Shown here in pieces: positions 9,468 to 27,314 of a stretch of 32,000 bases of DNA. Every line of letters starts with the position of its first letter. The stretch's first letter is position 1. The DNA is from Candidatus Methanoperedens sp. (lineage in GTDB: Archaea > Halobacteriota > Methanosarcinia > Methanosarcinales > Methanoperedenaceae): the NCBI GenBank assembly GCA_027460535.1, contig JAPZAR010000010.1, forward strand, positions 150,001 through 182,000. The letters run 5' to 3'. A model generated the notes under the pieces. The model saw only the letters and a list, made by a program, of their open reading frames with translations. It made no database searches and was not told where the DNA came from. The position numbers and the translations under genes were made by a program.

Positions 9468-12400
9468 ATGATAACTAAAAGGGACATTAAATGGATCATT
9501 TCCGTATTGATCCTTCTGGGCATGGTATATGCAGCTGCAGGACACCTGTTTGAAACCCACATCAATGATATCAAAGCAATAGCACTAATGCCCACTGGAA
9601 CCTCAACGAGCACGGCAACATCTATGGCCCCGGCAACTTTTACTGCCATAGCAGTTACGGGAGATTCTACAGCTACTTTTACAGCAACGGCTACCTCTAC
9701 AACCACAGCGACATCCACGGCCACAGCAACTTCTACGGGTACAGCAACTTCCACTGCCACAGGGACTTCCACGGCAACTGCAACTTCCACTGCCACAGGG
9801 ACCTCCACGGCAACTGCAACCTCTACTGCCACAGGGACCTCCACGGCAACTGCAACCTCCACTGCCACAGCAACTTCTACGGGTACAGCGACTTCTACAA
9901 CCACGGCAACATCTACGGCCAATGCAACTGCTACAACCACAGCAAATTCTACCGCCAATGCAACTGCCGCACCATCGCAAACAGGCTCACCTGCCATAAT
10001 TGACTCCACTCCATTTATGCGGCCGGTATCTGATATTGTGGGCGCATCGCGAACCTTCAGTATCACCCTCAACCAGACCGTAAGTGTTACCTGGTACATC
10101 AATGGAAATCAGGTTCAATCCAATGAAGATGTGACAGAGGCAAGCTATACCAACACCAGTGCAGCCGAGGGCACCTGGTTTATAAGAGCTGCAGCAGGCA
10201 ATGATAATGGCACGGTTTCGGAAGAATGGACATGGATCGTAATTACACCGCAGGAGAAAGCACCTGCAATAACGGCATTTGCCCCTGGAGAATCGCCTGT
10301 CCTTGATATCGAGGGAGCCTCAAGATCTTTCAATATTACCTACGACCAGACTGTAAATGTGGCCTGGTACATCAACGGAATTCCGGTTCAATCCAATGAA
10401 GATGTGACCTCTTCAAGCTATACCAACGCCAGCGCAGTTTTCGGCACATGGATTGTGAACGCTACAGCAACCAACGATAACGGTACAGTTTCGAAAGAGT
10501 GGACCTGGGTGGTGAAAGATATAACACCTCCTGCCAATGTTTCCAATTTGACAGCGACAGGCACAGGTCAAACTTATATAAACTGGACGTGGGAAAATCC
10601 CCCGGATATAGATTTTGACGGAACCAGAATTTTAATAGATGGGAACTTCAAAACCGATCTTCCAAGAACATCAAACGATTACAGTGCTACCGGATTGGCG
10701 CCAGGTACTTCTCATAGTATTACCGTGATCGCCTTCGATATTGCGCAAAACAATGCAACACAACCCTGGCCTGAGAATATGAGTACAACATTGCCAAATA
10801 CCATTCCAGGAGACAATGTCATACCTCTGGGATTGCCATCTGGAGTAATTGCAATTTTCAGCAGGGTTACAGATCAGGGTAACACCGTGATATCAACTAC
10901 CCAAACATCGCCATTAGCTCCGGGCTTCCAGCCACTTGGGAATTATGTGGATATAAGTACATCGGCAAATTTCACAGGTAATGTAACAATTACCCTGAAT
11001 TATACGACACCTCCGGAAGGATATAACGGGAGCAATGTACGCCTGTACCATTTGAACAATGCAGTATGGGAAGACATAACTGAAAATCTTGATACAGACC
11101 ATAATACCGTCACCGGGGAAGCTACAAGTCTGTCTCTTTTCGTCGCCGGGATCTATCCACCGCCTAAAATAGACGTGATTCAAGAACCTCCGAGCCTGGA
11201 AATCACGGTAAAAGATTCGTTATCATTCAATATCAGTGTTGACCAGACAACAAATGTGAACTGGACAGTTAATGGGGAGACCTCCCAAGGCCCTTTTTTG
11301 GTCCAGGCAGGAGGAAATTCCAATTTCACTTTCGCTTCAGCTACCAGGGGAAATTATTCAATAATAGTGGAGGCGAGCAATACTAATGGAACTGACACGA
11401 GATCATGGAATGTGACCGTCCATCCTGAATTCTTCTTCAAGGGGAACCGCATCTGGGACGGCAGTAAACCGGATGAGTTCTCACTCACATACACCTGGGA
11501 CCCCATGAGCTTCTCAGGCTTCTACTATGATGTCAATGATGACGTGGGTGATGAGAGTATCACGATGAGCCTGAATGGCTACAGCGATAGAACCATAAAC
11601 ACTGGCAAGCTCGTGTACACCACATCCCCTCAAGAGGTAAGCTTTGGCTACTCAGGTTTTGGCAGCTTTGAGGTCATAGGTTTCATGGCAGAGAAGTATT
11701 TTGCCGCCTATACATCCAACAGCAATCCTCCAAATCCAACTACAGGCATCGGGTTGAAAAGCGTGCTTGCCCAGGGTCACCTCCACAGGGTACTCATCGA
11801 TGACGATACAAGGCGCACCATATCCCTGGGAGGCACACTCACTCTGCAGGACGGTTATGTCCTGAAGGCAAAAGATATTGACATGAGCGCAAGGACCATG
11901 CTTATCTCCCTGTTAAAAGACGGAAATGAGGTGGATTCAACTCCTCTTTCAGCGGGCCAGACCTATGTTTATACAAAGACAGTGGGGGGTGTAACAGACC
12001 TTCCTTTAATACTGGTCAGATTTGACAGTGTATTCTCAGGTACAGAAGTGCAAGCCGCATTCTTGCAGGGATTGTTCCAAATATCCGAAAGCTATGATAC
12101 AGTTAATACCGGAAATGATTTTGGAGTGATGGAAGTCAGAAGTGTAAGCTTTAACAAAATAGAGATGAGAAATAATGCAGATGTAAGTCTAGATCAGGGA
12201 AGCACAGTGGATCTGATGGGAGATATGAAAATAGCAGTGGCGGATAACAGCAATGCGGTCCGATTTGCCCTCTCTGTTGAAAAAACAGGCAGCTTTGAGG
12301 TAAGGAGCAGTATCTATAGAGAGGATGCCCCGATTGATGAATGGACCCCTTACAACTTCGGGTTGAACATAGGTAAGACCAGTGTCGGTTTTTATTATGA

Positions 12401-14078
12401 CCTGGACGAAGGCATAGGTAATGAGAGCCTGCGGCTTGCAGAACCATTGGATGGCAGCCGAACCATAAATGATGCGGGACTGGTATATACAACTACGCCG
12501 GAGGACGTAAGCTTTGGTTACTCCGGTTTTGGAAGCTATGAAGTCATAGGTTTCATGGCAGAGAAGTATTTCGCGGCCTATACCGCCAGCAGCAACCCCC
12601 CTGATCCAACCACAGGAATCGTTGCGAAGAGCGCGCTTTCTCAGGGCCAACTTCACAAGGTACTGATCGATGATGATACCAAGCGCACCATTTCTGTGGG
12701 AGGCACACTTGCTCTGCAGGAGGGTTATGTCTTGAAGGCAAAAGATATTGACATGAGTGCAAGAACTATGCTTATCTCATTATTAAAAGATGGGAACGAG
12801 GTAGATTCCACGCCCCTTTCCGCCGGTCAGACCTATGTGTACGTAAAGAGAGTTGGGGCAGTGTCAGACCTTCCTATAATAATGGCGAGGTTTGACAGCG
12901 TATTCTCAGGTACGGAAGTGCAGGCTGCGTTCTTGCAGGGATTGTTCCAGGTATCCGAAAACTACGCGACCATCAATACTGGCAATGAATTCGGTATGAT
13001 GGAAGTCAGAAGCGTAAGCAATGATAACATAGAGATGAGTAACGTCGGGAGTATCGGCCTGGATAATGGTGCAAATGAAGTGCTCATGGGAAATATTAAC
13101 CTGAGAGTTGGTGATACGACTGATAATTCTCTGCGATTTTACTTTGCTGTTGATGTGACTCCTGAGACGGTGGCAAATCAGCTCGTAATAGACTCCCCGG
13201 CCCAGGCCACTGCAGGCGATACTGTCGGAATAAAGGTCACCGCGGGCGGAGAATTAATTGAGGGCGCATCCCTGACAATTGATTCTTCCGAGATCGGGCA
13301 AACGGACAGTAATGGTGTTCTTAATTATACTTTTTCCAGAAACATGAAAGGCACCTACAACTTAACTGGAACCAAGCTTGGCTACCAGGAAGACATTAAA
13401 AGCATAAACGTGCTGGAGTATATAGAGCGCAGGCTGAGTATAGATGCTCCTGCTACGGCGAATCAGCTTGATACGATAGTCATAAAAGTCACATCCAATA
13501 GCACAGTCATTAGCAATGCGACTGTGCAATATGATAATACAACCATTGGCTCGACCGATGGTAATGGTACCCTGAACTACACACTGGAAACAAGCGGCAC
13601 GCACGCAATAACAGCTTCAAAAAATGGTTATATCACCGTAGAAAAGGAAATTGACGTCAGGGCACCCTTTTCTCAGTATGAGGCCCTTGATATCAATATC
13701 ACTCCCAATACGGTTTTTACAGATGACGAGGCTGTGATCAAATCCAATATCACAAATGCAGGTACCAAAAAAGATACACTTCCTGTGGAGCTTATAGTCA
13801 ATGGAACTGCCGTGGATAACAGGTCTGTTACTCTCGCCCCCGGGGAGATAGAGGAAGTCAATTTCACACTAAAGGAAGCTGTGGCGGCGAACTATACTCT
13901 TGAGATCCTCGGACAAAAAGAGCTATTTCAAGTCAAAGAAAGGCCTTTTACTTCGAACTTGATCCTGATCGCGGCAATAGCTACAATTTTGGGGGTGATT
14001 GCCATCTACCTGTGGACTGCGAAAAATAAGATAACCCTCGAGTTAATAAAAAGGAAATTGAAGTTTGGAAAGGATTGA
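9468..14078 (+). CDS. S-layer / cell-surface glycoprotein (signal anchor, T/S/A-rich stalk, Ig-like repeats, FN3-like domain, tandem DUF1608 S-layer domains, CARDB-like domains, C-terminal TM anchor)
   Basis: N-terminal hydrophobic signal (IKWIISVLILLGMVYAAAG). 125-aa TSTATATSTGT low-complexity region. Two about 90-aa repeats (SRTFSITLNQTVSVTWYINGNQVQSNEDVT...) plus a diverged third. Two 290-aa DUF1608-like repeats (LVYTT.P..VSFGYSGFG..EVIGFMAEKYFAAY...), as in Methanosarcina S-layer proteins. C-terminal LILIAAIATILGVIAIYLW followed by a basic tail. Many N-x-S/T sequons. Confidence 0.85.
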   Translation: MITKRDIKWIISVLILLGMVYAAAGHLFETHINDIKAIALMPTGTSTSTATSMAPATFTAIAVTGDSTATFTATATSTTTATSTATATSTGTATSTATGTSTATATSTATGTSTATATSTATGTSTATATSTATATSTGTATSTTTATSTANATATTTANSTANATAAPSQTGSPAIIDSTPFMRPVSDIVGASRTFSITLNQTVSVTWYINGNQVQSNEDVTEASYTNTSAAEGTWFIRAAAGNDNGTVSEEWTWIVITPQEKAPAITAFAPGESPVLDIEGASRSFNITYDQTVNVAWYINGIPVQSNEDVTSSSYTNASAVFGTWIVNATATNDNGTVSKEWTWVVKDITPPANVSNLTATGTGQTYINWTWENPPDIDFDGTRILIDGNFKTDLPRTSNDYSATGLAPGTSHSITVIAFDIAQNNATQPWPENMSTTLPNTIPGDNVIPLGLPSGVIAIFSRVTDQGNTVISTTQTSPLAPGFQPLGNYVDISTSANFTGNVTITLNYTTPPEGYNGSNVRLYHLNNAVWEDITENLDTDHNTVTGEATSLSLFVAGIYPPPKIDVIQEPPSLEITVKDSLSFNISVDQTTNVNWTVNGETSQGPFLVQAGGNSNFTFASATRGNYSIIVEASNTNGTDTRSWNVTVHPEFFFKGNRIWDGSKPDEFSLTYTWDPMSFSGFYYDVNDDVGDESITMSLNGYSDRTINTGKLVYTTSPQEVSFGYSGFGSFEVIGFMAEKYFAAYTSNSNPPNPTTGIGLKSVLAQGHLHRVLIDDDTRRTISLGGTLTLQDGYVLKAKDIDMSARTMLISLLKDGNEVDSTPLSAGQTYVYTKTVGGVTDLPLILVRFDSVFSGTEVQAAFLQGLFQISESYDTVNTGNDFGVMEVRSVSFNKIEMRNNADVSLDQGSTVDLMGDMKIAVADNSNAVRFALSVEKTGSFEVRSSIYREDAPIDEWTPYNFGLNIGKTSVGFYYDLDEGIGNESLRLAEPLDGSRTINDAGLVYTTTPEDVSFGYSGFGSYEVIGFMAEKYFAAYTASSNPPDPTTGIVAKSALSQGQLHKVLIDDDTKRTISVGGTLALQEGYVLKAKDIDMSARTMLISLLKDGNEVDSTPLSAGQTYVYVKRVGAVSDLPIIMARFDSVFSGTEVQAAFLQGLFQVSENYATINTGNEFGMMEVRSVSNDNIEMSNVGSIGLDNGANEVLMGNINLRVGDTTDNSLRFYFAVDVTPETVANQLVIDSPAQATAGDTVGIKVTAGGELIEGASLTIDSSEIGQTDSNGVLNYTFSRNMKGTYNLTGTKLGYQEDIKSINVLEYIERRLSIDAPATANQLDTIVIKVTSNSTVISNATVQYDNTTIGSTDGNGTLNYTLETSGTHAITASKNGYITVEKEIDVRAPFSQYEALDINITPNTVFTDDEAVIKSNITNAGTKKDTLPVELIVNGTAVDNRSVTLAPGEIEEVNFTLKEAVAANYTLEILGQKELFQVKERPFTSNLILIAAIATILGVIAIYLWTAKNKITLELIKRKLKFGKD
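9744..9870 (+). repeat. 36-bp tandem repeat, about 3.5 copies, encoding (ATSTATGTSTAT)n inside the surface-protein gene
   Basis: Units start at 9744, 9780, 9816 and 9852 (gcaacttccactgccacagggacttccacggcaact), with 1-3 substitutions between copies. They are embedded in a broader degenerate ACN/GCN/TCN repeat region, 9594-9970. Confidence 0.85.
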
Positions 14079-14140: not shown

Positions 14141-15529
14141 CTACCTTAACCAGCCCCGCCTGTAGAAAACATATAATGCCAGGAGCATTATGGAAAGCTC
14201 AAGGAAGAATATCTCTGATAGCCTGACCGGATATGGACTGTCTATCAGGTTCTCCCCAAAGAGCCCGCTTATGATTGAAGGTATGAGTCCGAGGCTTGTT
14301 ATCACCGCTAGTATCCTCATTACCCTGTTTAACCCGACGGATACTGTATTTATGCGAAGATCGATCAACGATATCAGATTGTCCCTGATGGTGTCAGATG
14401 TCTCAGAAAGGTAAACTGATTCATCAAAGAGAATGCCGAAGAGGGAAGGATATTCATCCTTCAAGCCGGGCAACATTTTTCTCGTTCTAACAGCCCCCAG
14501 CACCTGCCTAAAATGCAAGAGGTTGCTGTGGATTTTCTGGATCTCCCTCTTAAAGTAGAACGATCTCTCAAGGAACGGATGCATCTGACCTACGGGTAGT
14601 TCTTCCAGTGCCGTTATGTCTTGCTCCATTGACCGCACGATCTCTTCATAATCACTGATTTTTCTGCTGAAGATCGAGTATAGAATTCTGACAATAAAAT
14701 CCTCATCCTTCACCGACAGGCCATCATTTATCAGATCAAATAGCTCGCTTTTGTTATTGGAAATGGTGACGATGTAGTTGTCGGCCCATGCAATGAGCAT
14801 ATTATTTCTCAGGATTTGTACGGTTTTGGTATCCGCATCTTCTGATCGCAGTTTATAGTCCCTGATGAAGATAGTGGTGAGGTTCTTGAAGAAATCGATC
14901 TTTGGGTAGGATTCCTTGATTATTTTGCTTTCCAGCACAACCCCTGGGATTTTGAGCGTGTCACTCAAAAAACCAATATCGAGCTCCGAAACCTCCTGAA
15001 GGTCGATCCAGATATGCCCCGGGGCAGCAATATAACGGGCAATATCTTCCTTTGCTGCACCTTTTATGATCCTGCCATCCTCGAGGATGTTGATTTTCAT
15101 CTGTGAGACAAGCGGAGTAACCTTCTCCATTGGTCTTACCGGGATCGCCCTTTTGACTGTCCTGCCAGCAACAGCAAATATCCTAGCAACCCGCAACAAC
15201 GGAAAGATCCTTCCTATTCCTCCCAGCGGTATCCGCGGAATGAAATTCGTGGCAGCAAGGATAGCGATCAGAAGGTCTATGATGTGCCACGGCTCAGTAG
15301 CATATGCCTTCCTCGAATCTGCTACGTACAGCTTTAAGAAGTACTCCAGAATGAATATCACAAGGATAGCATCTCTAACTGCCCTGAACAAAGCCAGCAT
15401 GAACTGCGAGAAAGTAAATAAGGCGGGCAAAAAAATAACCGGGATCAGTATCAGTGCAAGCACTATCATCAGGTGATCGGTCAGTATCTGATAAACCGGT
15501 TCCCTAAGTTTGGCACGCAGGGATTGCAT
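14141..15529 (-). CDS. chimeric membrane protein: N-terminal voltage-sensor-like domain (S1-S4) fused to a CorA-family divalent-cation channel
   Basis: S2 FILEYFLKLY, S3 PWHIIDLLIAILA and S4 GRIFPLLRVARIFAVAGRTVKR match ion-transport-family voltage-sensor hallmarks. Next comes a CorA-like cytoplasmic domain (HIWIDLQEVSELDIGFLSDTLKIP...). The C-terminal two TMs read LAVITSLGLIPSIISGLFGENL, with GEN where GMN is canonical. Start placed at ATG 15529 (MQSLRAKL); the ORF track extends to 15646. Confidence 0.75.
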   Translation of the reverse strand: MQSLRAKLREPVYQILTDHLMIVLALILIPVIFLPALFTFSQFMLALFRAVRDAILVIFILEYFLKLYVADSRKAYATEPWHIIDLLIAILAATNFIPRIPLGGIGRIFPLLRVARIFAVAGRTVKRAIPVRPMEKVTPLVSQMKINILEDGRIIKGAAKEDIARYIAAPGHIWIDLQEVSELDIGFLSDTLKIPGVVLESKIIKESYPKIDFFKNLTTIFIRDYKLRSEDADTKTVQILRNNMLIAWADNYIVTISNNKSELFDLINDGLSVKDEDFIVRILYSIFSRKISDYEEIVRSMEQDITALEELPVGQMHPFLERSFYFKREIQKIHSNLLHFRQVLGAVRTRKMLPGLKDEYPSLFGILFDESVYLSETSDTIRDNLISLIDLRINTVSVGLNRVMRILAVITSLGLIPSIISGLFGENLIDSPYPVRLSEIFFLELSIMLLALYVFYRRGWLR

Positions 15530-15751
15530 AATGTTTGTTTTATATGTCTTATAAGAAATACTCTTGGTAAGGAAATGATAGATCAAAGGTCTATAGCCAT
15601 TTCTCATGACGGTAAATCCTATTCTAGGCAGCCTTGAACAAGTCACAAGCTAATTTGTGTTAAACTGAAATGCTTTAATCCCTCCATACCCGGGATGTTT
15701 ATTTAAGCGAAGCTGCCAATATGGGGATAGGAGTAAGACGGAGTAGAATTT

Positions 15752-16150
15752 ATGGGTTTTCTTGGAACCAGGGCAAGTTCGTTCTCGGATATGGTTCTGA
15801 TTGCCCAGACAGCAGCTTTCCTGATACTTTTTTCAGGTCTTGTATATGTAAGAAAGAAAAATTTTTCAAATCATGATAAAATGGCCAAGATTGCGGTCCT
15901 TATAAGCAGCCTATCTTTCGTATGGATGGGCTATTCTCTCATTTCCAATTTTCTGACACTTGCATCTATGACTTTTATGGGTTTGCTTATTGTTTCCCAT
16001 GTGATCATAGGGTTATTAGCGCTATTCATGGGCATATTCCTGATATTGGATGAGATAAAAAAGACAGAAGCCTCCATGAGAATTATTTTTGTTTCATGGA
16101 CTGCAGCAGTTCTTTTAGGTGTTATATTGTATATTATGTATCTAGCTTAA
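15752..16150 (+). CDS. small integral membrane protein (about 4 TM), possibly DUF420-like
   Basis: 132 aa, four hydrophobic segments, with a NHDKMAK motif after TM1. The family assignment is tentative. Confidence 0.45.
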   Translation: MGFLGTRASSFSDMVLIAQTAAFLILFSGLVYVRKKNFSNHDKMAKIAVLISSLSFVWMGYSLISNFLTLASMTFMGLLIVSHVIIGLLALFMGIFLILDEIKKTEASMRIIFVSWTAAVLLGVILYIMYLA

Positions 16151-16236
16151 GCCTGCTATAGATATTTAAAATCCAATCAAATGGCAAGAATTAAATACGA
16201 TGCTATCGAATTTATTATATTAAGAGTGGAGGGAAT

Positions 16237-16686
16237 ATGGCAATAGGTGATTTGAACAAGAAGTTTGGCTGGATATGGCTATTGATAGGCCCATTAATGG
16301 GCTTGTATATTACCAGCCGTATGGTCGGCCTGGGAGCGGCATATTCAGCTGCGACAAAAGAAGTAATGATCGCCGGGCAAAATGTGACGCTGTACATGGG
16401 AGAACCGGGTATGAGAGTAGTAAATCGACTTCTTCATGTTCATAGCGGCCTTCTGGCTATCCTGAACATAGTTTATGGACTCAGTATTGACAATGTCAAC
16501 CTGTCGGATAAAACCAAGAGGCTGGGCAGCATACTTGCAGTTGCGGGGGCAATTCTTGTAACTCTTGCGTTCTACTTCCTCCTGATTACATCGTTGAGGG
16601 CTCTTGCGGTTCCTTTCAGAACATTGGGGGGTATAAGCCTAGTAATTGCAGTCGTGATAATAGCCGTGGGGCAGCTTAAAAAATAG
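16237..16686 (+). CDS. small integral membrane protein (about 4 TM), unknown family
   Basis: 149 aa with four hydrophobic segments. A good SD (GGAGGGAAT) lies immediately upstream of the ATG. Confidence 0.5.
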   Translation: MAIGDLNKKFGWIWLLIGPLMGLYITSRMVGLGAAYSAATKEVMIAGQNVTLYMGEPGMRVVNRLLHVHSGLLAILNIVYGLSIDNVNLSDKTKRLGSILAVAGAILVTLAFYFLLITSLRALAVPFRTLGGISLVIAVVIIAVGQLKK

Positions 16687-16765
16687 ATTCCTGAAGTCAC
16701 CGCTGGCACTCAGGTGATGATGACCAGGGTTGATCTGTTGCAGGCTTTTTACAAGGGTAGCACAC

Positions 16766-17230
16766 CTATCTTATGAATAGCCTCCACCAGTGGATCCCTC
16801 TCATCAATAGCAATACAACGCCGACGCTCTTGATAATCTTCGCCGCTGAGATCACTATCATGAACTTCTTTGATTCATAATTTTCAATTCCTGCGACCAT
16901 GGGGGCAAGATCACCCACAAAAGGGATCCAGGGGGAAACGAGAAGCAGCGTCACCCCGTATTTGCGAAAGTGCATCTGCATTTTTTCTTCCCGTTCTTTG
17001 TTATGAAACGGGATTATTTTCTGAAGCTCATATTTTCCCAGGAGATAACCCAGTAATGCTCCTGTTATCGATCCTACAATTAATGTAACTATAATTATTG
17101 CCGGATTTATCCCTACACGAAGTAACTCCACTATGACAAATTCTGTGGGTATCGGGATGATGGAAGAAATAATGCTGACCGCTAAAAGTCCCATCGTTCC
17201 GTAGGCGGCGAATAATTCGAATAGTACCAT
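16766..17230 (-). CDS. DedA/YqaA (VTT-domain) family membrane protein
   Basis: IIPIPTEFVIVELL...GSITGALLGYLLGKY...KYGVTLLLVSPWIPFVGDLAPMVAGI matches the YqaA/DedA re-entrant-loop pattern. Confidence 0.65.
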   Translation of the reverse strand: MVLFELFAAYGTMGLLAVSIISSIIPIPTEFVIVELLRVGINPAIIIVTLIVGSITGALLGYLLGKYELQKIIPFHNKEREEKMQMHFRKYGVTLLLVSPWIPFVGDLAPMVAGIENYESKKFMIVISAAKIIKSVGVVLLLMRGIHWWRLFIR

Positions 17231-17386
17231 TCTTGACCCCTATTTTGTTTTCTGAACTATAAACATAATCGTACAACGCCAAATTCACTGCTTTTAAATA
17301 GATCTCGGGCCGAAGTTCCACTTCACGGCGCTCCTGATGCACAGTATAGAAGTGTCCCTCAGGCTGATATTTGAACTTTACGGGCG

Positions 17387-17974
17387 TTAAGACCTTCCCA
17401 GTATAGTCCTGAAATGGTTCATCCTTTTTTCCCACCTCTCGCTCGTGCCCACCTCAGCATGGCATTTCGTGCACTCGTCCGTGTGGCAGGAACTGCATGT
17501 TACCCCCCTTGGTATATGGATAGTTATGAGATTTCCTTTGCTTGGCAAGAGCGGATCGGGATAATCATGGCAATTGTTGCAGGATATGTTCCCATTGATA
17601 TAGACGGGTTTTGTAGGACTTGTTCCGTGGCATTTCTCGCATGTAACGTTCTTATTAATGGGGTGCACCTCATGCGATATCTTATGGCAGATAAGGCAGT
17701 AAGCACCACCGTTTACGTGGGGCGTTACTGTCAATGCCTGGGGGATGGATGGTTTTCCCGACATATGGCAGCCCTCGCAGACACCTTTGGATACCAATAC
17801 GGTGAAGTTGCCGCCCTGCTGCATATCTTTTCTCTGGGCGCTGCCATTTGTTGTTTCCGGTTGAACCGATATGCGCCTTTCCTGGTTTACACGACCTTCC
17901 TGGATTATGAATAACAATATCAACAGGAAGGCAGCCGTGAATATTATCAGCAATAGCCTATACCTTGTTTTCAT
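17387..17974 (-). CDS. hexahaem c-type cytochrome with N-terminal signal/anchor
   Basis: Six CxxCH motifs (CEGCH, CLICH, CEKCH, CNNCH, CSSCH, CTKCH) in about 130 aa after a hydrophobic N-terminus (YRLLLIIFTAAFLLILLFII). Start placed at ATG 17974; the ORF track uses GTG 17980. Confidence 0.85.
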   Translation of the reverse strand: MKTRYRLLLIIFTAAFLLILLFIIQEGRVNQERRISVQPETTNGSAQRKDMQQGGNFTVLVSKGVCEGCHMSGKPSIPQALTVTPHVNGGAYCLICHKISHEVHPINKNVTCEKCHGTSPTKPVYINGNISCNNCHDYPDPLLPSKGNLITIHIPRGVTCSSCHTDECTKCHAEVGTSERWEKRMNHFRTILGRS

Positions 17975-17976
17975 TG

Positions 17977-18174
17977 TCACGACCTGTTCAGCAAATGTAG
18001 ATTAGAGTCCGCTACTGCTCCCTGGATATCATGCGGCAGTCCGGGGGTGCCGAAGATGAAATGAGCCATCTCAAGGGCCGTGGTGGGAATAAAATAATGT
18101 CCCGTTGCCCCCAGGGCCGGCATATCACCCGGAGAAAAGCGGGATGTCTTCAATTCACTGTTCGGTTGTTCCAT
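17977..18174 (-). CDS. hypothetical 65-aa ORF immediately upstream of the cytochrome gene
   Basis: ATG with AGAGGAA 12-13 nt upstream. The stop abuts the cytochrome start. No motifs and no TM, so coding status is uncertain. Confidence 0.25.
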   Translation of the reverse strand: MEQPNSELKTSRFSPGDMPALGATGHYFIPTTALEMAHFIFGTPGLPHDIQGAVADSNLHLLNRS

Positions 18175-18410: not shown

Positions 18411-19559
18411 ATGCTTATCACAATGAACCCGCCCCTTGTATCCATCATAATCCCCTGTATGAACGAGGAGATGACCATAGGAACCTGCATCCGGAAAGCA
18501 TGGTCAAGCCTGAAGCAGGAGGGACTGGAAGGAGAAATAATAGTATCGGACAATTCCACAGATAATTCCGGTGAGATCGCGAAAAAATCGGGTGCCAGAG
18601 TCGTAACTCCCGCTAATAAAGGGTATGGGAATGCATTTTTGGTGGGTTTCAGGCACGCAAGGGGTAAATATTTTCTGTTAGCGGATGCCGATGATACTTA
18701 TGACCTGATGGAAATGGCTAAGTTCCTGAAACCACTCCTATCCGGCGAAGCGGATTTCGTAATGGGGAACAGATTGAAGGGAGAGATCAAAAAGAACTCC
18801 ATGCCCTGGCTTCACAGGTACATAGGCAATCCCGTACTTACAAGAGTCCTGAACATGCTCTTCAAGACACAATTGAGCGATGCCCATTGCGGTATGAGGG
18901 CAATTACAAAAGATGCGCTGGAAAAGCTGGATCTAAAGAGCGAGGGGATGGAATTCGCAAGCGAGATGATAATTGAAGCCGCGCGGAAAAAACTTCGGAT
19001 AACCGAGGTGCCTATCAATTATTATCCGAGGAAGACACCTTCCAAGCTTCACTCGTGGGGTGACGGATGGCGGCATCTGCGGTTCATGATGCTTTACAAT
19101 CCGACACCATTTCTTTCCATCCCGGGCTCGCTCCTATTTCTACTCGGCGGCTTTATGACATTCACTCTGGAATTGCGCGGGAACGTAGAAACAACAAGTT
19201 TGCATTCATTCATCCTGGGAAGCATGCTTGCAATTATCGGTACCCAGATGATAGCCACGGGCACCTATTTGAAAGTCTATGGGATAATTCATAACAAAAT
19301 AGACAGGACGGGTCTGACCGCAATGCTCCTGGACTACCATTCTCTTGAGGTAGGGCTATTTATCGGTATAATCTTGTTCTTCGGGGGCATGGTTTCCGGT
19401 TCAAGTGTTCTTTTCAAATGGATATCTTCAGGTTACGGCTCGCTTTCGGAAGTGGGGAACGCGGTCATATCCATGGTGCTCGCGGCCCTTGGCATCCAGA
19501 TAATCTTTTCCGCGCTCATAATCAGTATTTTTTTGCTGGATAATAAGGAAAACCAATGA
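18411..19559 (+). CDS. family 2 glycosyltransferase with C-terminal membrane domain (dolichyl-phosphate hexosyltransferase-like)
   Basis: VSIIIPCMNEE...VSDNSTDNSGEIA...GYGNAF...LADADDTYD (GT-A fold with DxD), followed by about 4 TM helices. Confidence 0.85.
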   Translation: MLITMNPPLVSIIIPCMNEEMTIGTCIRKAWSSLKQEGLEGEIIVSDNSTDNSGEIAKKSGARVVTPANKGYGNAFLVGFRHARGKYFLLADADDTYDLMEMAKFLKPLLSGEADFVMGNRLKGEIKKNSMPWLHRYIGNPVLTRVLNMLFKTQLSDAHCGMRAITKDALEKLDLKSEGMEFASEMIIEAARKKLRITEVPINYYPRKTPSKLHSWGDGWRHLRFMMLYNPTPFLSIPGSLLFLLGGFMTFTLELRGNVETTSLHSFILGSMLAIIGTQMIATGTYLKVYGIIHNKIDRTGLTAMLLDYHSLEVGLFIGIILFFGGMVSGSSVLFKWISSGYGSLSEVGNAVISMVLAALGIQIIFSALIISIFLLDNKENQ

Positions 19560-20695
19560 AGATCGCCTTTGTATATGATGCTGTCTACCCATGGGTGAAA
19601 GGAGGGGCGGAAAAAAGGATATTCGAGATAGGCAAACGATGCGCCAAGCGGGGGAATGAAGTCCATGTCTTCGGGATAAAATGGTGGCAGGGCCCTTCTG
19701 TTATCAGGTACGAGAACATGATGCTGCACGGGGTATGCAGCCCGATGGAATTATACGTTAATGGCAGGCGGGATATTTCAGAGGCATTGATCTTCTCCCT
19801 GAAACTCTTGCCACACCTTATCATGGAGAAATTCGATGTGATCGATGTGAGCGCCTTCCCGTATTTTCCATGCTTTTCTGCAAAGCTTGTGTCCTTTGCC
19901 AGGAGAACTCCCATGACTGTAACCTGGCATGAGGTCTGGGGGGAATATTGGTATGAATACCTCGGACCCGGGGGTTTTTTCGGGAAGCTTGTTGAGAATA
20001 TGGTTGCAAAATTGGCTGCCAGACCTATCGCTGTATCGGCATTGACCGGAAAGGGGCTTGAGTCGCTTGGAGTGAGAGGGAGAAAAATCCATATCGTGCC
20101 GAACGGCATCGACCTGAAAAGGATAAAAGAAATCATGCCTTCTCCTGATAAATGTGATCTGATATTTGTGGGGCGGCTTATCAGGGAGAAGAATGTGGAT
20201 TTGATGCTTGAAGCAGTGGATCATCTGAGGATAACACTGCCGCACGTGCAGTGCCACGTTATTGGCGGGGGACCTGAGAAAGAGAGGCTTACAGGACTTG
20301 CAGCGAAGCTCGGGCTCCTTGATAATGTGAAATTCTTCGGGTTCATGGAGTATGATGAGTTAATCGCCAGGATAAAGTCCTCCGGGGTATTGGCGCTACC
20401 CTCCAGCCGCGAAGGATTCGGGATGGCAGTACTTGAGGCCTTTGCATGCGGAGTACCCGTTGTTACGGTGAAAGGTGAGAAGAACGCTGCATCTTCGCTT
20501 GTCGATGACGGTACTGGTTTTGTGGTGGACCTTGATGCAAGGGAGATCAGTGAGGCTGTTGCCAGGTTGATCAAAGACCCCATGCTACATGAAAGAATGG
20601 CTGCCTCTGCCATGGCGAGAGTGCAGGAATACGATTGGGACAGGATAGTCGAGCGGCTGACTTGCATTTATGATGATCTACTGCAATACCATTAA
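19556..20695 (+). CDS. family 4 (GT-B) glycosyltransferase
   Basis: MKIAFVYDAVYPWVKGGAEKR N-terminus and the C-terminal EGFGMAVLEAFACGVPVV (EX7E region). ATGA overlap with the GT2 gene. Confidence 0.85.
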   Translation: MKIAFVYDAVYPWVKGGAEKRIFEIGKRCAKRGNEVHVFGIKWWQGPSVIRYENMMLHGVCSPMELYVNGRRDISEALIFSLKLLPHLIMEKFDVIDVSAFPYFPCFSAKLVSFARRTPMTVTWHEVWGEYWYEYLGPGGFFGKLVENMVAKLAARPIAVSALTGKGLESLGVRGRKIHIVPNGIDLKRIKEIMPSPDKCDLIFVGRLIREKNVDLMLEAVDHLRITLPHVQCHVIGGGPEKERLTGLAAKLGLLDNVKFFGFMEYDELIARIKSSGVLALPSSREGFGMAVLEAFACGVPVVTVKGEKNAASSLVDDGTGFVVDLDAREISEAVARLIKDPMLHERMAASAMARVQEYDWDRIVERLTCIYDDLLQYH

Positions 20696-22499
20696 GGACA
20701 TCAAGGATAATAAAATCAGGCAACCCTTATCAGATATGTTCAAGAAACTCCCCAATAGAATCACCGATCTGCTCGCTTCCAACAAAATCCCCTTACTGGT
20801 ATTTTTAAGCTCCTTGTTCATACTTATCACTTTTGCGAGCACACGATTACTTTTTTCGGATGAAGGGGTGATACTGGACCAGTTTTATAATTTGATCCAT
20901 GGCTCTATAGCCCTGAAAATCGCCAAAATAAATGTGACAAAAGGAGTTTTCATATCAGTAGGGGGCAGCCTCTACGGGAAATTTAGCTATTCGCTTATGA
21001 TCTTATCTCTCCCTGCATACTATTTTCTAAAAGCAGTCAACTCGATCTATGGTGCGCATCTTTTCATATTGCAGCTTTGGGCTTTGAGCGGCGGATCCAT
21101 TGTTTATCTTATTGCGAAAAACCACAAGTATGCGAGCGGAATAATGGCGTATTTCGTCCTGATATCTGCCAATCTGTATATCTTTAAGCCCATTTACTTC
21201 CCGAAATGGGGGGAAGTCCTCTCGATCGAATTCACCAATATCCTTATCACATCTTTTCTGGTCCTGATCGTTTATCTTTTATTCAGGGAACTTTTCAACA
21301 ATAAAATTGCTCTTTTTGCCTCTTTTTTTGTATTAGTTGCAACACCGGTTCCTTTTTATGCCATCACGTTGAAACATCACAATCTGGCTGTTCTTCTCAC
21401 TTTGCTGACCTTCATCCTTTTTTACCGATATTCTGAAAAAAAGGATAATAGATTCATGTACGCTGCATATTTATCGGCAGGACTTTGCGTCTGGACACGA
21501 ATTCTGGATGGTGCAGTGTTACTGGCATCTCTTCTGATAATGGACTTCGTTTTTTTTAAACGGACCTTTAAATATGCCGTTACGATCTCATTCATAATTT
21601 TGATATCTCTGATCCCTTTTTTTAGTTTCAATCAATTTATTCTTGGAAATCCTTTCTCGATCATTGAAGTTACCCCTCTGGCCAGCACCCAGATGACAAT
21701 GGCCAACGCAAACGATTTTATTTCACTCAACGAAAGTCCGGCAAGTGCCAATCAATTTGCGCTTTTAGATAAACTTGGATTTACATGGAATCCGGACATA
21801 AGTGGAAATTGGCTGAGGGTTTTGTCGGATGTCCTATTTCTCAAGGTAGGAAATACATTTGGTATTTTATTAATAAGTCCCTTTCTGGTGCTGGCCATTG
21901 CCTTTGTGATAGAAAGGATTAAGAATAGAGTTAAATTGAATACAATGGATAGTATTTTTGGGTTGTATACTATTCTGCTATTTGGCGCGTATTCCATATT
22001 ATATATTTTATTTAATATAAATTCTCTAATTTCAATAATTACGGATACTCCCATAGTTCTTGAATACAGGTACCTTCTGGTGGGGTATATCATCCTTCTT
22101 TATTTTGCCCTCAGGACCGATAAAGTCCGGGAGCTGATCGAAACTAACTTTAAAAATATAGGCCGGATGTATGCTATATCATTGCCACTGATGTTAATCG
22201 TTTTCATTGAATTATTTCCTTCGCCTTTCATGGATAGTTACTACTATGTATCGCTGATCACTTCTGCCGCCCTTTTGATCCCAGTATCCGCATATCTTTT
22301 ATTTTCCAAAAAGAAATCCCTTCCCGCATTGGATTCCTGGGTAACTTTCTTTATTGCACTGTCCCTTGTTGAAGCTTCCCTGTTATTGCTTTTTTATTAC
22401 TGGGTTGTCAGCATGACCTACGTGTCACCAACACAAAACTATAGTATCCTGCCAACTTTAGAGAATACATTGAAATGGATGTATCAGATCTTTTTGTAA
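20670..22499 (+). CDS. large polytopic membrane protein, GT-C-like (putative lipid-linked-sugar glycosyltransferase or polymerase)
   Basis: More than 12 hydrophobic segments. There is an acidic DE pair just after TM1 (TRLLFSDEGVILDQ), as in the first loop of PMT/ArnT-type GT-C enzymes. No WWDYG motif. The start may be the Met at 20736. Confidence 0.55.
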   Translation: MMIYCNTIKDIKDNKIRQPLSDMFKKLPNRITDLLASNKIPLLVFLSSLFILITFASTRLLFSDEGVILDQFYNLIHGSIALKIAKINVTKGVFISVGGSLYGKFSYSLMILSLPAYYFLKAVNSIYGAHLFILQLWALSGGSIVYLIAKNHKYASGIMAYFVLISANLYIFKPIYFPKWGEVLSIEFTNILITSFLVLIVYLLFRELFNNKIALFASFFVLVATPVPFYAITLKHHNLAVLLTLLTFILFYRYSEKKDNRFMYAAYLSAGLCVWTRILDGAVLLASLLIMDFVFFKRTFKYAVTISFIILISLIPFFSFNQFILGNPFSIIEVTPLASTQMTMANANDFISLNESPASANQFALLDKLGFTWNPDISGNWLRVLSDVLFLKVGNTFGILLISPFLVLAIAFVIERIKNRVKLNTMDSIFGLYTILLFGAYSILYILFNINSLISIITDTPIVLEYRYLLVGYIILLYFALRTDKVRELIETNFKNIGRMYAISLPLMLIVFIELFPSPFMDSYYYVSLITSAALLIPVSAYLLFSKKKSLPALDSWVTFFIALSLVEASLLLLFYYWVVSMTYVSPTQNYSILPTLENTLKWMYQIFL

Positions 22500-22792
22500 A
22501 GATGCACACAGAAAGTCCCATCTTAGTCCGGGAAAATCCTGGGTCATGAATTAACATGGGAAAAATTGCATCGGGCCATTATTGCCTGGTATTCCTGACC
22601 AGCATCAGTCTATTTATTATAAAAATAATTCTTTTTGTAATGCTTAAATAGTAGTTAATGTATAGCTCCAGTGCTTTGCAGAGATTAAAAAAAAATTCAA
22701 AATATTCTGATTTCTCATGACCACACCTTCTTGAATCTAATTGTCTTAATCGGTTTCATTGTTACCGGAAATGGTATTTTTCCCCCCTTTTC

Positions 22793-23837
22793 ATGGCCGT
22801 GATGATGTTCTTTTTGCTCATGGATTTGGTCATCCCATCCTTTTATGAAAGCCTGACGCACGGCATTGGATATCTGATCACGGACGCGCCCGTGTTGAAG
22901 CAGATAATTGAAGCCCAGCCTCTCTTCTATACTTTTGAGGGCACGTTCCTTGGATGGCAAATATTAAGCAACCCGGTGTGGTATTCATTCACTTTCAGCT
23001 TTTATGCAGGAATTATAGGGTTCGCATGGTTATTCTACTCCCATCGGAACGGGATGGATAAGGCGCAAATATTTTTTATTGTCTGGACCCTGATAGTCCT
23101 GGCCCTTGCTCTATACCAGAGGCGCTTTAGCTATACGCTTGCGATAAATATCGCGATACTTTCCGGATATTTCATAGACAGGATCAAATCCCTTTCTCTA
23201 AGACCGTATTATGTTATTTTCCTCCTCTTCCTTTTTATCCCGAATATGGCTGTGGCGTATGATCTTTCCCAGGTCCCGCCCAAGCCATCGGATGACTGGT
23301 ATGATCCTTTGCTGTGGCTGAAGGAGAATACACCCGCTGGAGGGCAGTATGGCATAATGACATGGTGCGGATAAGGACCTTGCAATGTATTTTGACCAGA
23401 GCAACCTGCCCAATGAGAATTACTTCCACACCATGTATGCAAGACTGCATGTATTCGACGGCAGTGGGCTTGAGAATTACAGGATGGTATATGAATCGAA
23501 TGAGACGCATTATGACATCTTCGGCAAGCCTGCAAGGAATATCAAGATATTTGAATATGTGAAAGGGGCAAAGATAGCCGGGAAGGTGTCACCTAAGGAG
23601 ACTGTGTCCCTTTCGGGGACTATTATTACCAATCAGAGGCGGATGTTCGAGTATGCTCAACAGGTGAAAGCGGATGAAAAAGGGGATTTTGAATTTACAG
23701 TCCCATATTCGATTGATGACCCCTATGAGACCAGATTATTAAAAAGCTATGAATTAATATATGGTAATTCAAGCCGTTCTGTACCCGTTTCGGAGAATGA
23801 TATCCTGAATGGATATAAAATCTTGGCGGAGAGATGA
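22793..23837 (+). pseudogene. aglB: decayed AglB/STT3 oligosaccharyltransferase (N-terminally truncated, frameshifted, internally shortened)
   Basis: ORF 22793-23374 ends ...DDWYDPLLWLKENTPAGGQYGIMTWCG*. This is the region that in intact AglB leads into WWDYG. ORF 23385-23837 (YFHTMYARLHVFDG...YRMVYES...IKIFEYVKGAKIAG...) is the AglB C-terminal globular region in the +1 frame. Confidence 0.7.
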
Positions 23838-23958
23838 GTCATATCCACATCTTTCATTTGAAACTGCGCAAGCCCCAGACCCGCCGCCTTCGGCGGAGGT
23901 GCCTGACTTGCCCCCGTCCGGGAAGATTTATTAAGCAGAATCCCCCTATTTATTTAAA

Positions 23959-24087
23959 ATGCTATCTTCTGAAAAATTTGAAATACAAAATGCTATGAGA
24001 ATTATAAAAGGGTTCGATCCAAAGTTCGCCGGATTCGAGACCCAGATAGAGAAATATCTGCAAAAAACAGTTCCCGATAACAAATGA
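23959..24087 (+). CDS. possible 42-aa ORF translationally coupled to the downstream GT4 gene
   Basis: [42 protein letters not shown]. Its TGA overlaps the ATG of the 24084 gene (ATGA). Too short for the ORF track, and no family recognised. Confidence 0.25.
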
Positions 24088-25178
24088 AAATCGCCATCTT
24101 CCACGACTATATAGGAGCGATCGGGGGCGGGGAGAAGCTGATCCTGACACTTGCCCGGGGGCTTGATGCTGATGTGATAACCACGGACGTGGATGGGGAT
24201 TCCGTCAGGAAGATGGGATTTGAGGACGTAAATATCATAAGCGTCGGAAGGATGATCCAGCTTGCCCCGATCAAGCAGATCCATGCATCGTTGCGGTTTG
24301 CATTGTGCGATTTTTCGGACAGGTATGATTTCTTCATCTTTTCGGGCAATTGGGCGCATTTCGCCGCCCGGAAGCATAAACCCAATATGTGGTATTGTTT
24401 TACTCCAACCAGGATTTTTTATGACCTGCATGATGATTTTATGGGAAGATTATCTTTCATCGCAAGGCCATTCTTCATGCTATGGATAGCTCTTCACGAA
24501 CCGATGAGCAGGCGTTTTGCAGGTCATATTGAACATGTCATCGCAATATCGAAAAATGTCCAGAAAAGGATCAAGAAGTATTATGGGCGGGATTCGATGG
24601 TTGTGTATCCTGCCATTGATATATCAAAATACAGATTCGAAAAGTATGGAGATTTCTGGCTTTCTGTTAACAGGCTCTACCCTGAAAAACGCATCGAATT
24701 GCAGATCAATGCATTCAGGCAAATGACCGACGAGAAACTGGTTATCGTTGGAGGTTATGCTAAAGGAGACCATGCATCGAAATACGCATCCTGGATAATC
24801 AGGGACCTGCCGCCGAATGTGGAATTACTGGGGAGCGTCACCGAAAAGGAATTGATCGATTTATATGCGACCTGCAGAGGGCACATCACCACCGCAATCG
24901 ATGAAGATTTCGGAATGACCCCTGTAGAAGCGATGGCCTCGGGAAAAGCTACTGTTGCTGTCAATGAGGGCGGTTATCTTGAGACGGTGATCGATGGTTC
25001 AACCGGGATACTTGTTGCTGCTGATGAGAAAGCCATCATTAATGCTGTTAAAATAGTTTCAAAAAGCCCGGAAAAGTATCAAACGGATTGCAAAAACAGG
25101 GCAAAAGAGTTTGATACGAATGAATTTATTAAAAGGATGTCTGCTATTATGCAGTCATTTCAAAAAAATATTGCATAG
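24084..25178 (+). CDS. family 4 (GT-B) glycosyltransferase
   Basis: [20 protein letters not shown]-terminus and the C-terminal [29 protein letters not shown]. Confidence 0.85.
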
Positions 25179-25182
25179 AAAC

Positions 25183-26205
25183 ATGGAATCGCTGAATATC
25201 GGGATCATAACGTATCATCTGGATAAAGGCAATGGAATCGACTCTGCGGTGGTCAGGTTTGCAGAGGGGCTTTCAAAAAGGAATAATGTAACGCTGATAG
25301 CATCAAGGAACAATTTCGAAACAGACGTTCCCTTCTTACAAATAAACCAGGATAATTCAAAAATCCCCGGTGCCCACAAAATATTGAATAAAATGGATCT
25401 CGATGTTTTGTCGTCTCATTTTGTCCCTTCAAATTTCATTGCTTCCAGAACGAAATTTTTCCATGTGATGCATGATGCTGGATTGCCTGATTTTTATTTA
25501 ATGAATGGTCTGAGGGAAAGACTGTTTTGGCTAAAGAGTCACCTTTTGAATTCTCTCTCATTGAAAAGAGTAGATATAGTATTTTCAATTTCGGAATATT
25601 TGAAACGAGAACTCATTCGAAGATATAAGTATAAAGGAGAGGTGCATGTTCTCCCCTACGGGCTGAACGTTCCAGGACCGCAAAGAAAGATCGATGGTAA
25701 CTTTATCCTGTACGTGGGGAGGCATATGAGATATAAAAATATCCACACCCTCTTTAAAATATTCGATGCTTTTTCAAAGGATCACCCTGATGTCTATCTC
25801 TATACGATCGGGATACAGCCGGATCCAGATTATTATGAGGAACTCCTCTGCTTATCAAAAAATAAAAAAATAAAAATGATGGGCTATGTGGAAAACGTGT
25901 ATGATTATATTTATACCTGCAGAGCGTATGTAAATGCATCTCTCTGGGAAGGACAGGACCTCCCGGTGATCGAATCACAAATGCTGGGAAGGCCCGCAAT
26001 AACTTATAATAACTGCAGCCATCCGGAGACCAATTTTTCCGGATACCTGGCAAAAAATGAGAATCATTTCGCAGAACTCATCGCCAGTGCACTGGATACA
26101 AAAGTAGATCCGCGTCCTGTTATAGAGAAATTTTCTATGGATAGCATGGTCAATAATTTTGAAAAGCTCATTTCCAGGAAATTGAACGAAGGTGTTAAGG
26201 AATAA
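25183..26205 (+). CDS. family 4-like (GT-B) glycosyltransferase
   Basis: LNIGIITYHLDKGNGIDSAV N-terminus, then FILYVGRHMRYKN and ASLWEGQDLPVIESQMLGRPAI (a degenerate EX7E region). Start placed at the Met at 25183, just after the upstream stop; the ORF track starts at 25111. Confidence 0.75.
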   Translation: MESLNIGIITYHLDKGNGIDSAVVRFAEGLSKRNNVTLIASRNNFETDVPFLQINQDNSKIPGAHKILNKMDLDVLSSHFVPSNFIASRTKFFHVMHDAGLPDFYLMNGLRERLFWLKSHLLNSLSLKRVDIVFSISEYLKRELIRRYKYKGEVHVLPYGLNVPGPQRKIDGNFILYVGRHMRYKNIHTLFKIFDAFSKDHPDVYLYTIGIQPDPDYYEELLCLSKNKKIKMMGYVENVYDYIYTCRAYVNASLWEGQDLPVIESQMLGRPAITYNNCSHPETNFSGYLAKNENHFAELIASALDTKVDPRPVIEKFSMDSMVNNFEKLISRKLNEGVKE

Positions 26206-26240
26206 TAAAGTATCAAATTATAAAGCTAAAACCGCAGATA

Positions 26241-26477
26241 AAGGTCCAGAGTCACGGACCTCCCGCGCCTCTGGAGGACGTCAAATGTCACGTCAGTTGA
26301 CGCCGTGCACACGTATGCCAGCGTACGGCATACGTGGACGCGTCCTCATGGGCCGCAACCCTTGACTTATGGCTCCGCCATACATGGATATCGCTGCGCG
26401 ATACCCGCAAGGCATAGGTGTTGTGTGGGAGTCCGGAACCGTCAGGTTTCGATGCAGAACCCGCAGGGCATGATGAA
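26241..26477. other. GC-rich, hairpin-dense non-coding element (candidate structured RNA or inserted element)
   Basis: Visibly GC-richer than the flanking AT-rich sequence. Contains a 10-bp perfect stem (26310-26319/26327-26336, 7-nt loop), further 5-6-bp stems (26243-47/26256-60, 26259-63/26273-77, 26279-84/26297-302, 26389-94/26398-403, 26435-40/26445-50) and the palindrome GGACGCGTCC (26336-45). Flanked by the direct repeat CGCAGATA (26233-40 and 26478-85). ORFs on both strands look non-coding. Confidence 0.3.
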
Positions 26478-26540
26478 CGCAGATATATTGAAGTTTTGGA
26501 AGAGCCAATTTAGCTATGTTATTTCCCAAGGATACACAAA

Positions 26541-27314
26541 TTGACATTTACTACCAATATCTGGAACTACAGACATCTCATCAAAAAAATCGCTATAAGT
26601 GATTTCAAACTCAGGTACAAGAATTCAGTCCTGGGGTTTTTCTGGTCGCTGCTTGAGCCATTGCTGATGCTGCTCGTTCTCTACGTGGTCTTCACGAACT
26701 TCATGAGGGTCACGATAGAGCACTACCAGCTTTTCCTGCTGATGGGCATTATTTCCTGGAACATGCTAAGCAGAGGAACAACCATGAGCCTGAACAGCAT
26801 CCTGGGCAAGCCGAGCCTTGTGAAAAAGGTGTATTTCCCGCGAGAAGTGCTGGTGATCAGCTCAAGCATCACCGCGCTTTTGATGACTTTACTGGAATTC
26901 ATCGTGTTCGGGATATTCATGGCAGTTTTCGCAGTTATCCCGGGTACAACATTGATTTACTTCCCTGCCATTCTTTTTGTTGAATTCCTGCTCGTCCTGG
27001 GTCTATCCTTCGGCCTTGCCGCACTGAACGTATTTTATCGCGACATCCAATATATATGGGCGGTTATCCTGCAGGCAGGGTTCTTTGCGGCCCCGATCAT
27101 ATACCCCCTTTCCGTGATTCCTGAGAAATATGCATTGATCATCAAGCTGAATCCCATGACAAGCATTATCGATATGCTGAGGGGAAGTGTGATATATTCA
27201 ACATGGCCGGCTCCCGGGGATGCGATGTTCGTCGTAGCATCGGCTATTTTTATACTTGCCCTTGGCTATTTTATTTTCTTGAAGCTTGAATCCAGGTTCG
27301 CGGAGGAGCTATGA
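26541..27314 (+). CDS. wzm: ABC-2 type polysaccharide/glycan exporter permease (Wzm/TagG-like)
   Basis: FKLRYKNSVLGFFWSLLEPLLMLLV is the hallmark ABC-2 N-terminal motif. Six TM segments. TTG start as tracked. Confidence 0.85.
   Translation: MTFTTNIWNYRHLIKKIAISDFKLRYKNSVLGFFWSLLEPLLMLLVLYVVFTNFMRVTIEHYQLFLLMGIISWNMLSRGTTMSLNSILGKPSLVKKVYFPREVLVISSSITALLMTLLEFIVFGIFMAVFAVIPGTTLIYFPAILFVEFLLVLGLSFGLAALNVFYRDIQYIWAVILQAGFFAAPIIYPLSVIPEKYALIIKLNPMTSIIDMLRGSVIYSTWPAPGDAMFVVASAIFILALGYFIFLKLESRFAEEL

Follow-up and report, generated by a model that had tools for sequence, protein, structure and literature searches.

Voltage-sensor domains (VSDs) are known to act on pore domains that assemble as tetramers, on a phosphatase, on a proton path inside the sensor and on a single eukaryotic transporter, the sperm Na+/H+ exchanger SLC9C1; according to Yeo et al. 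2023, no other transporter is known to be under the control of VSDs. Neither magnesium nor pentamers are mentioned in a 2024 review on voltage sensors, which deals with channels, Hv1, TMEM266, SLC9C1 and VSPs. In SLC9C1 and VSP, the cytoplasmic end of S4 relays the signal to a cytoplasmic module (PMC10620092, PMC13095418). CorA proteins conduct a flux powered by membrane potential (PMC6972854), and two further papers describe classical CorA as shut by cytosolic Mg2+ that sits between adjacent subunits, at their N-terminal domains (PMC12933068, PMC6927688). Here, we describe a gene of Candidatus Methanoperedens sp. that encodes a VSD and a complete CorA-type subunit in one polypeptide. It lies at positions 14141-15529, minus strand, of a 32,000-nucleotide stretch of contig JAPZAR010000010.1 (hereafter the window). 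A full-text literature search combining voltage sensor or VSD with CorA, magnesium, pentamer and fusion architectures found no paper on a VSD-CorA fusion, in agreement with an earlier sequence-only reading of the window, which had considered the architecture uncharacterised.

The coding sequence runs from an ATG at 15529 to a stop codon at 14141-14143, the frame is open throughout, and the product has 462 residues before the stop codon. A longer mechanical open reading frame (ORF) starts at GTG 15646 and would give 501 residues. We favour the ATG because the N-termini of homologues fall within a few residues of it and because an A/T-rich, TATA-like stretch, tttcttataagacatataaaa, lies 9-29 nucleotides upstream (15538-15558, minus strand). 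Judged from the sequence, 14141-15529 is the best gene model for the fusion, and the A/T-rich stretch is a possible archaeal promoter, a candidate for a leaderless or short-leader mRNA.

The protein consists of a VSD with helices S0-S4 (residues 1-127), a 15-residue linker, a full CorA cytoplasmic domain and two CorA transmembrane (TM) helices. Searches for the domain boundaries placed both halves above the Pfam cut-offs, with Ion_trans (PF00520) at residues 21-124 (40.1 bits, cut-off 25) and CorA (PF01544) at residues 171-455 (115.8 bits, cut-off 27). The Ion_trans match covers only positions 6-112 of the 241 of the profile, that is, S1-S4 and no pore. After S4, the next TM helices are TM1 and TM2 of CorA, about 270 residues further on, and the S5-P-S6 pore of six-TM Kv, Nav and Cav channels is missing. 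These results agree with the sequence-only reading, which had proposed a VSD in the N-terminal 130 or so residues, no S5-P-S6 pore after S4, and a full CorA funnel with its two TM helices; the motifs it quoted (ILEYFLK, W..IDLL, RIFPLLRVARIFAVAGRTVKR and SGLFGENL) are all present in the protein. Its view that the topology is self-consistent is also borne out, as the positive-inside rule, read on the sequence, places the N-terminus, the S2-S3 loop, the linker and the C-terminus all on the cytoplasmic side. Conservation was assessed over 134 distinct full-length fusions, a raw set biased towards Methanoperedens, and over a redundancy-reduced set of 44 representatives of clusters at 50% identity; all coordinates given below for parts of the protein are on the minus strand.

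By profile, fold and functional residues, the N-terminus is a genuine VSD. A search of PDB sequences with a single sequence as query gave marginal matches only, yet every one of them was a VSD. When a profile built from 18 VSDs of the family was used instead, the four-repeat channels Cav3, Nav and Cav1 were matched at E-values of 3e-27 to 1e-12 (the best being a summed E-value of 3e-27), and the single-VSD bacterial channels NavAb, NavMs and NavRh at about 1e-8 to 1e-9. The AlphaFold2 (AF2) model of residues 1-140, with a predicted local distance difference test score (pLDDT) of 80, contains an S0 helix and four TM helices. Compared with the PDB by Foldseek, its best 50 matches were all VSDs (NavPaS, NavMs, Kv2.1, Kv4, NavAb, Ci-VSP), with TM-scores of 0.55-0.66 and a probability of about 1.

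In the AF2 secondary structure, an amphipathic S0 helix (residues 2-15, 15485-15526) precedes S1 (residues 18-37, 15419-15478). S2 (residues 42-69, 15323-15406) carries the motif F59-x-x-E62, followed by Y63 and K66, and S3 (residues 80-94, 15248-15292) carries W81, found in 129 of the 134 fusions, and the countercharge D85. S2 thus supplies one aromatic and one acidic residue and S3 another acidic one, and we take F59, E62 and D85 as the counterparts of the charge-transfer centre in classical sensors. A review describes the equivalent residues of S2 and S3 in voltage sensors (PMC13095418). Alignment of the S4 segment, RIFPLLRVARIFAVAGRTVKR (residues 107-127, 15149-15211), with NavMs puts R107, R113 and R116 in the R1, R3 and R4 register, the every-third-position spacing of basic residues expected of a VSD, with P110 at the R2 position. 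The sensor therefore resembles those of NavAb, NavMs and the eukaryotic Cav3, Nav and Kv channels in its S1-S4 bundle, the F-x-x-E of S2, the W-x-x-x-D of S3 and the spacing of the S4 arginines, but differs from Nav, Cav and Kv sensors in having a proline at R2 and only two or three S4 charges inside the helix. As a whole, the fusion also differs from those channels in lacking an S4-S5 linker and S5-P-S6, and is expected to be a pentamer rather than a tetramer.

The C-terminal part is a complete CorA-type subunit. Foldseek matched the full-length AF2 model (pLDDT 73.5) to the CorA Mg2+/Co2+ channels of Thermotoga maritima (TmCorA) and Methanocaldococcus jannaschii (MjCorA) at E-values of about 1e-15 and a probability of 1.0. 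Among PDB sequences, residues 141-462 matched only CorA entries (4cy4, 4ev6, 3jcf; E about 1e-17), and no ZntB sequence was matched at E <=0.01. The cytoplasmic domain (residues 143-398, 14336-15103), supported by Pfam CorA, Foldseek and the PDB sequence matches, is made of an alpha/beta N-domain followed by long stalk helices. It leads into the pore-lining TM1 (residues 399-424, 14258-14335), which aligns with TM1 of TmCorA and MjCorA, then the GxN signature G425-E426-N427 (14249-14257), the outer helix TM2 (residues 437-457, 14159-14221, from the AF2 secondary structure and the MjCorA alignment) and a basic C-terminus, RRGWLR (residues 457-462, 14144-14161), in which W460 is kept in 133 and G459 in 129 of the 134 fusions. 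This C-terminus resembles the one of TmCorA, which is also basic. SGLFGENL aligns with TGIYGMNF of MjCorA and AGIYGMNF of TmCorA. The Pfam profile, the fold, with its alpha/beta domain, long stalk helix and two C-terminal TM helices, and the G-x-N after TM1 place the protein in the CorA / 2-TM-GxN (MIT) superfamily.

Compared with TmCorA and MjCorA, its best PDB matches, the fusion therefore has the same alpha/beta cytoplasmic domain, long stalk helices, TM1, GxN loop, TM2 and basic C-terminus. It differs from them in about 140 extra N-terminal residues, which form the VSD, in reading GEN instead of GMN, and in scoring 92.1 bits against the NCBIfam corA equivalog model (TIGR00383), whose cut-off is 200.75, so that it falls outside the GMN subgroup. 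It also differs at the Mg2+ sensor: D89 and D253 of TmCorA align with S201 and I366, and the fusion family has mostly S and I, L or V at these positions, so that the canonical sensor residues are absent.

The same architecture was sought in other archaea and bacteria and found in both. In a search across 5.8 billion proteins we obtained 80 relatives, of which almost all have both Pfam domains, including one from a Ca. Methanoperedens metagenome-assembled genome (MAG), annotated 'ion transporter', that is 100% identical to the window protein. An exhaustive hidden Markov model (HMM) search with the VSD profile yielded 51 clusters (50% identity) at E <=1e-30; among its top 150 matches, most of the prokaryote-sized ones were full-length VSD plus CorA by our own HMMs, and the other prokaryote-sized ones were fragments. 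Moreover, scanning one genome per species with a 7-sequence VSD alignment as query gave 29 loci, with an intact fusion ORF at 26 of them, each in a different species-representative genome. Archaeal carriers are Methanoperedens, Methanocellales/Methanocella, Methanoregulaceae and Methanothrix, and bacterial carriers belong to the Planctomycetota/PVC group, 'Bacterium UASB14' and Dehalococcoidia/Chloroflexi. Public databases label these proteins 'ion transporter' or 'CorA family divalent cation transporter'.

The sequence-only reading had named an assembly chimera as a possible error, and we examined this explanation together with frameshift read-through and a pseudogene. A few database relatives are indeed truncated or split, P0103 and P0057 for example, but nothing of the kind was found for the window gene, whose frame is open from end to end. 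The fusion recurs as 134 distinct full-length proteins in independent assemblies, its ORF is intact at nearly all species-representative loci, and both halves are under purifying selection (see below). Since the fusion recurs, we regard the chimera explanation as refuted, and an artefact of any of these kinds as hardly conceivable.

Conservation does not stop at the domain boundary. In the sensor, F59 is found in all 134 fusions, E62 in 133 (with D in the other), D85 in 133, R113 in 133 (with K in the other), R116 in 126 and R123 in 127 (with K in five more). In the pore region, P417 is found in 134, G425 in 133 and N427 in 132, and the loop proline P432 is conserved along with TM1 and W460. 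The 44 cluster representatives repeat this pattern. The lowest column entropies belong to TM1, at 0.83 bits the most conserved segment of the protein, S3 (1.19 bits), S2 (1.23 bits) and the GxN loop, and S2, S3 and S4 are roughly as conserved as the pore helix. Among Methanoperedens and Methanocellales orthologues, the ratio of nonsynonymous to synonymous substitution rates (dN/dS) was 0.07-0.26 for the VSD and 0.04-0.27 for the CorA domains, a range that includes the pair of the window gene and locus L001, both of which carry a deletion in S4 described below. As the two ranges coincide, the sensor is under the same purifying selection as the pore, also in the subclade with the deletion. The linker between S4 and CorA (residues 128-142, 15104-15148) behaves differently: its sequence is the most variable of the protein (entropy 3.2 bits, pLDDT below 50), whereas its length is constrained, at 15 residues in 98 of the 134 sequences and 15-17 residues in 39 of the 44 representatives.

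By these data, the fusion is probably a CorA-type channel for divalent cations, pentameric and with a gating that the membrane potential biases. A four-helix VSD with a cytoplasmic N-terminus is tethered to a complete CorA subunit, at whose N-terminus the linker of about 15 residues ends. By analogy with CorA, five such subunits would surround a single central cation pore, which TM1 would line, and the five voltage sensors would lie at the periphery. A change of membrane potential would move the S4 arginines across the charge-transfer centre formed by F59, E62 and D85; the displaced cytoplasmic end of S4 would then, through a tether of fixed length, displace the CorA N-terminal domain, whose rigid-body movement controls the opening of the pore in classical CorA. 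Voltage-dependent opening through the tether is the simplest reading given that the canonical Mg2+-sensor residues are absent and that the linker is hypervariable yet 15-17 residues long. The membrane potential would in this way bias, in one polarity or the other, the opening of a divalent-cation path whose flux the same potential drives, which provides a physiological rationale for a voltage sensor on a CorA protein, and such control would supplement, or take the place of, the sensor by which cytosolic Mg2+ exerts feedback on classical CorA. In its most specific form, the proposal is that of a first voltage-gated pentameric channel, in which five peripheral sensors gate a CorA pore by pulling a fixed-length tether on the cytoplasmic regulatory domain, with no S4-S5 lever, and in which a membrane-potential sensor replaces Mg2+ feedback in energy-limited anaerobes; we advance this version as a serious possibility, and only tentatively.

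Several observations weigh against a voltage-gated CorA channel. The S4 of the window protein is short: only R113 and R116 lie inside the predicted helix, R107 being in the loop before it, P110 takes the place of R2, and three residues (LLR) that most relatives have are missing, leaving one S4 arginine fewer. This in-frame deletion, which the sequence-only reading had not noted, is shared by 8 distinct sequences, namely the window protein and Methanoperedens P0003, P0006, P0007, P0008, P0010, P0011/L001 and P0012, which on the alignment are a natural 'charge-deletion' subclade. Taken together, the short S4, its two or three charges in the helix, the proline and the lost arginine mean that voltage dependence may be shallow. 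The Foldseek E-values of the VSD are weak (0.02 or higher), even though all matches are VSDs, and the confidence of the model is low over S4 and the linker (pLDDT 46-67). The lack of sequence conservation in the linker speaks against a specific docking interface. Finally, one helical turn away from the position of D253 there are two conserved acidic residues, D369/E370, and through these Mg2+ sensing may persist in another form.

These points could be gathered into a different explanation, in which the VSD-like bundle no longer senses voltage and has the role of anchoring in the membrane an ordinary CorA regulated by cytosolic divalent cations, of interacting with lipids or of mediating assembly. 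The arginine lost in the window subclade, the proline at R2, the variable and poorly modelled linker and a D369/E370 pair that could still bind Mg2+ would all fit it. We nonetheless find it unlikely, because F59, E62, D85 and R113, residues that serve charge transfer only, are essentially invariant both in the full set and in the 44 divergent representatives, and the dN/dS of the VSD is as low as that of the pore, while a mere anchor would not keep buried charges; in addition, the D89 and D253 on which classical Mg2+ regulation depends are not conserved. Another explanation is that the VSD itself conducts, as an Hv1-like proton path or an omega-type leak, with CorA as a regulatory or assembly scaffold. 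Hv1 has its acidic selectivity aspartate in the middle of S1, whereas the S1 helix of the fusion (DHLMIVLALILIPVIFLPAL) has no acidic residue after D18, which sits at its cytoplasmic end. The hydrophobic plug F59 is invariant as well, and the strong conservation of TM1 fits a working central pore. Thus, although VSD-only channels such as Hv1 exist (PMC13095418), we consider a conducting VSD very improbable here.

The GxN motif has to be discussed separately, as the sequence-only reading had called GMN universally conserved and had taken GEN to imply altered ion selectivity. GEN is indeed what the protein reads, but GMN is not universal: the signature of the superfamily is GxN (PMC6972854), and among the fusions the middle residue varies. 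In the 134 sequences it is E in 57, M in 26, Q in 16, T in 13, V in 11, S in 5, I in 2, A in 2 and D in 1, and in the 44 representatives M in 21, E in 8, V in 5, Q in 3, S in 3, I in 2 and T in 1, which makes GMN the most frequent form in the redundancy-reduced set. GQN and GVN occur in Methanoperedens proteins that share over 80% identity with the window protein, so that the position switches among E, Q and V, and covariation of the middle residue with other alignment columns gave a phylogenetic signal only. Because this residue is loosely constrained in the fusion family, GEN says little about selectivity, and that part of the earlier claim does not stand firmly.

One could still argue that the selectivity filter is re-tuned by having GEN for GMN and that the protein mainly conducts some ion other than Mg2+, the VSD being secondary. 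With E426, five carboxylates would lie close to the mouth of the pore, the raw census has E more often than any other residue at this position, and the protein misses the corA equivalog threshold. However, flips among E, Q and V in such close relatives, with M in nearly half of the representatives, look like relaxed constraint and not like a tuned filter, and the pore-facing elements G and N are practically invariant. Moreover, Mg2+, Co2+, Ni2+ and Zn2+ were transported in liposomes by GMN CorAs and by a ZntB alike (PMC6972854), and the PDB sequence search retrieved CorA and, at E <=0.01, no ZntB. A re-tuned filter as the main feature of the protein is therefore doubtful in our opinion, and a voltage-biased CorA channel remains the reading we prefer.

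Two further comparisons help to place the fusion. ZntB has a residue other than methionine in its GxN motif. The fusion is like ZntB in combining a CorA fold with a GxN motif without methionine (PMC6972854), but ZntB has no VSD, and what stimulates its transport is a proton gradient and not the membrane potential (PMC6972854). With SLC9C1, Ci-VSP, Hv1 and TMEM266, the fusion shares a VSD that is not coupled to a tetrameric pore domain; unlike in these proteins, the effector is a CorA channel, expected to be pentameric, the VSD stands N-terminal to the cytoplasmic domain of the effector, and the family is prokaryotic.

We also collected relatives that depart from the standard architecture. Candidates for stand-alone VSD-only or CorA-only close relatives were rejected, as they turned out to be fragments or split copies of the same fusion gene. 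In one relative, the fusion appears to be split into an 89-residue VSD fragment and a 376-residue CorA part starting in the S3-S4 loop (P0103/P0057); the longest contig is 9253 bp in both records, which suggests that the two lie on one contig, and the split is likely a frameshift or sequencing error. P0138 (367 residues) and P0196 (649 residues) have the CorA TM hairpin almost directly after the VSD, with much of the funnel missing, and P0196 has about 370 extra C-terminal residues with no Pfam match; P0193 (518 residues) lacks the last CorA segment. Assembly artefacts or genuine short variants may account for these three. P0166, P0169, P0190, P0194 and P0206 (527-675 residues), which rank with the closest relatives of the fusion VSD that have no CorA, have two VSD matches each, and P0166 has Pfam Ion_trans and Ion_trans_2 pore matches; these proteins may be two-repeat channels. 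At L019:1960-4419, in a Methanobacteriota MAG, the stop-to-stop frame reaches 338 codons upstream of the VSD, a candidate N-terminal extension.

The surroundings of the gene were compared as well. Clustering the ORFs within 3 kb on either side in the 29 loci and the window revealed no operon partner: it gave the fusion gene, its antisense shadow ORF and unrelated ABC ATPases at varying positions. The antisense ORF (15066-15476, plus strand, 136 residues) has counterparts in 22 related loci, and we take it for a shadow cast by the conserved coding frame, not for a gene of its own. The convergent neighbour (9468-14078, plus strand) encodes a 1536-residue S-layer protein (Pfam S-layer 520 bits, two copies) with a Thr/Ala/Ser-rich tandem repeat near its N-terminus, at 9703-9965, of period 18/36/72 nucleotides. 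Upstream, 15752-17980 encodes small membrane proteins and a small multihaem cytochrome c, namely a protein with a weak DUF420 match under the Pfam cut-off (15752-16150), a 149-residue protein without assignment (16237-16686), a VTT/DedA-type protein (16766-17230) and the cytochrome (17387-17980), none of which is kept beside the fusion in other genomes. Further on, 18411-22499 holds a glycosyltransferase gene cluster (GT2, GT4 and a PMT_2-type mannosyltransferase). Within 21000-30000, stretches at 21-23 kb, 25-26 kb and 29-30 kb have a low G+C content (0.37-0.39 versus about 0.46). The glycosyltransferase and low-G+C region may be a horizontally acquired surface-glycan region.

In conclusion, the fusion appears to join two known modules in an undescribed combination, and the five-fold arrangement of voltage sensors expected by analogy would be without precedent. 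If the proposed reading is true, a sensor on a five-fold channel of unrelated fold would make the S1-S4 module more portable than present examples indicate, and a signal that leaves the end of S4 and reaches a cytoplasmic gating ring by way of a tether would be a new route of electromechanical coupling. The family is small, prokaryotic and about 460 residues long, hence tractable for cryo-electron microscopy, liposome flux measurements and protein engineering. Under the proposed reading, Mg2+ and metal homeostasis in prokaryotes would gain a further layer, in which the membrane potential directly controls an electrophoretic uptake path. As the fusion is confined to methanogens, methane-oxidising archaea and anaerobic bacteria, it may be connected with a life in which membrane energisation is low and fluctuates.

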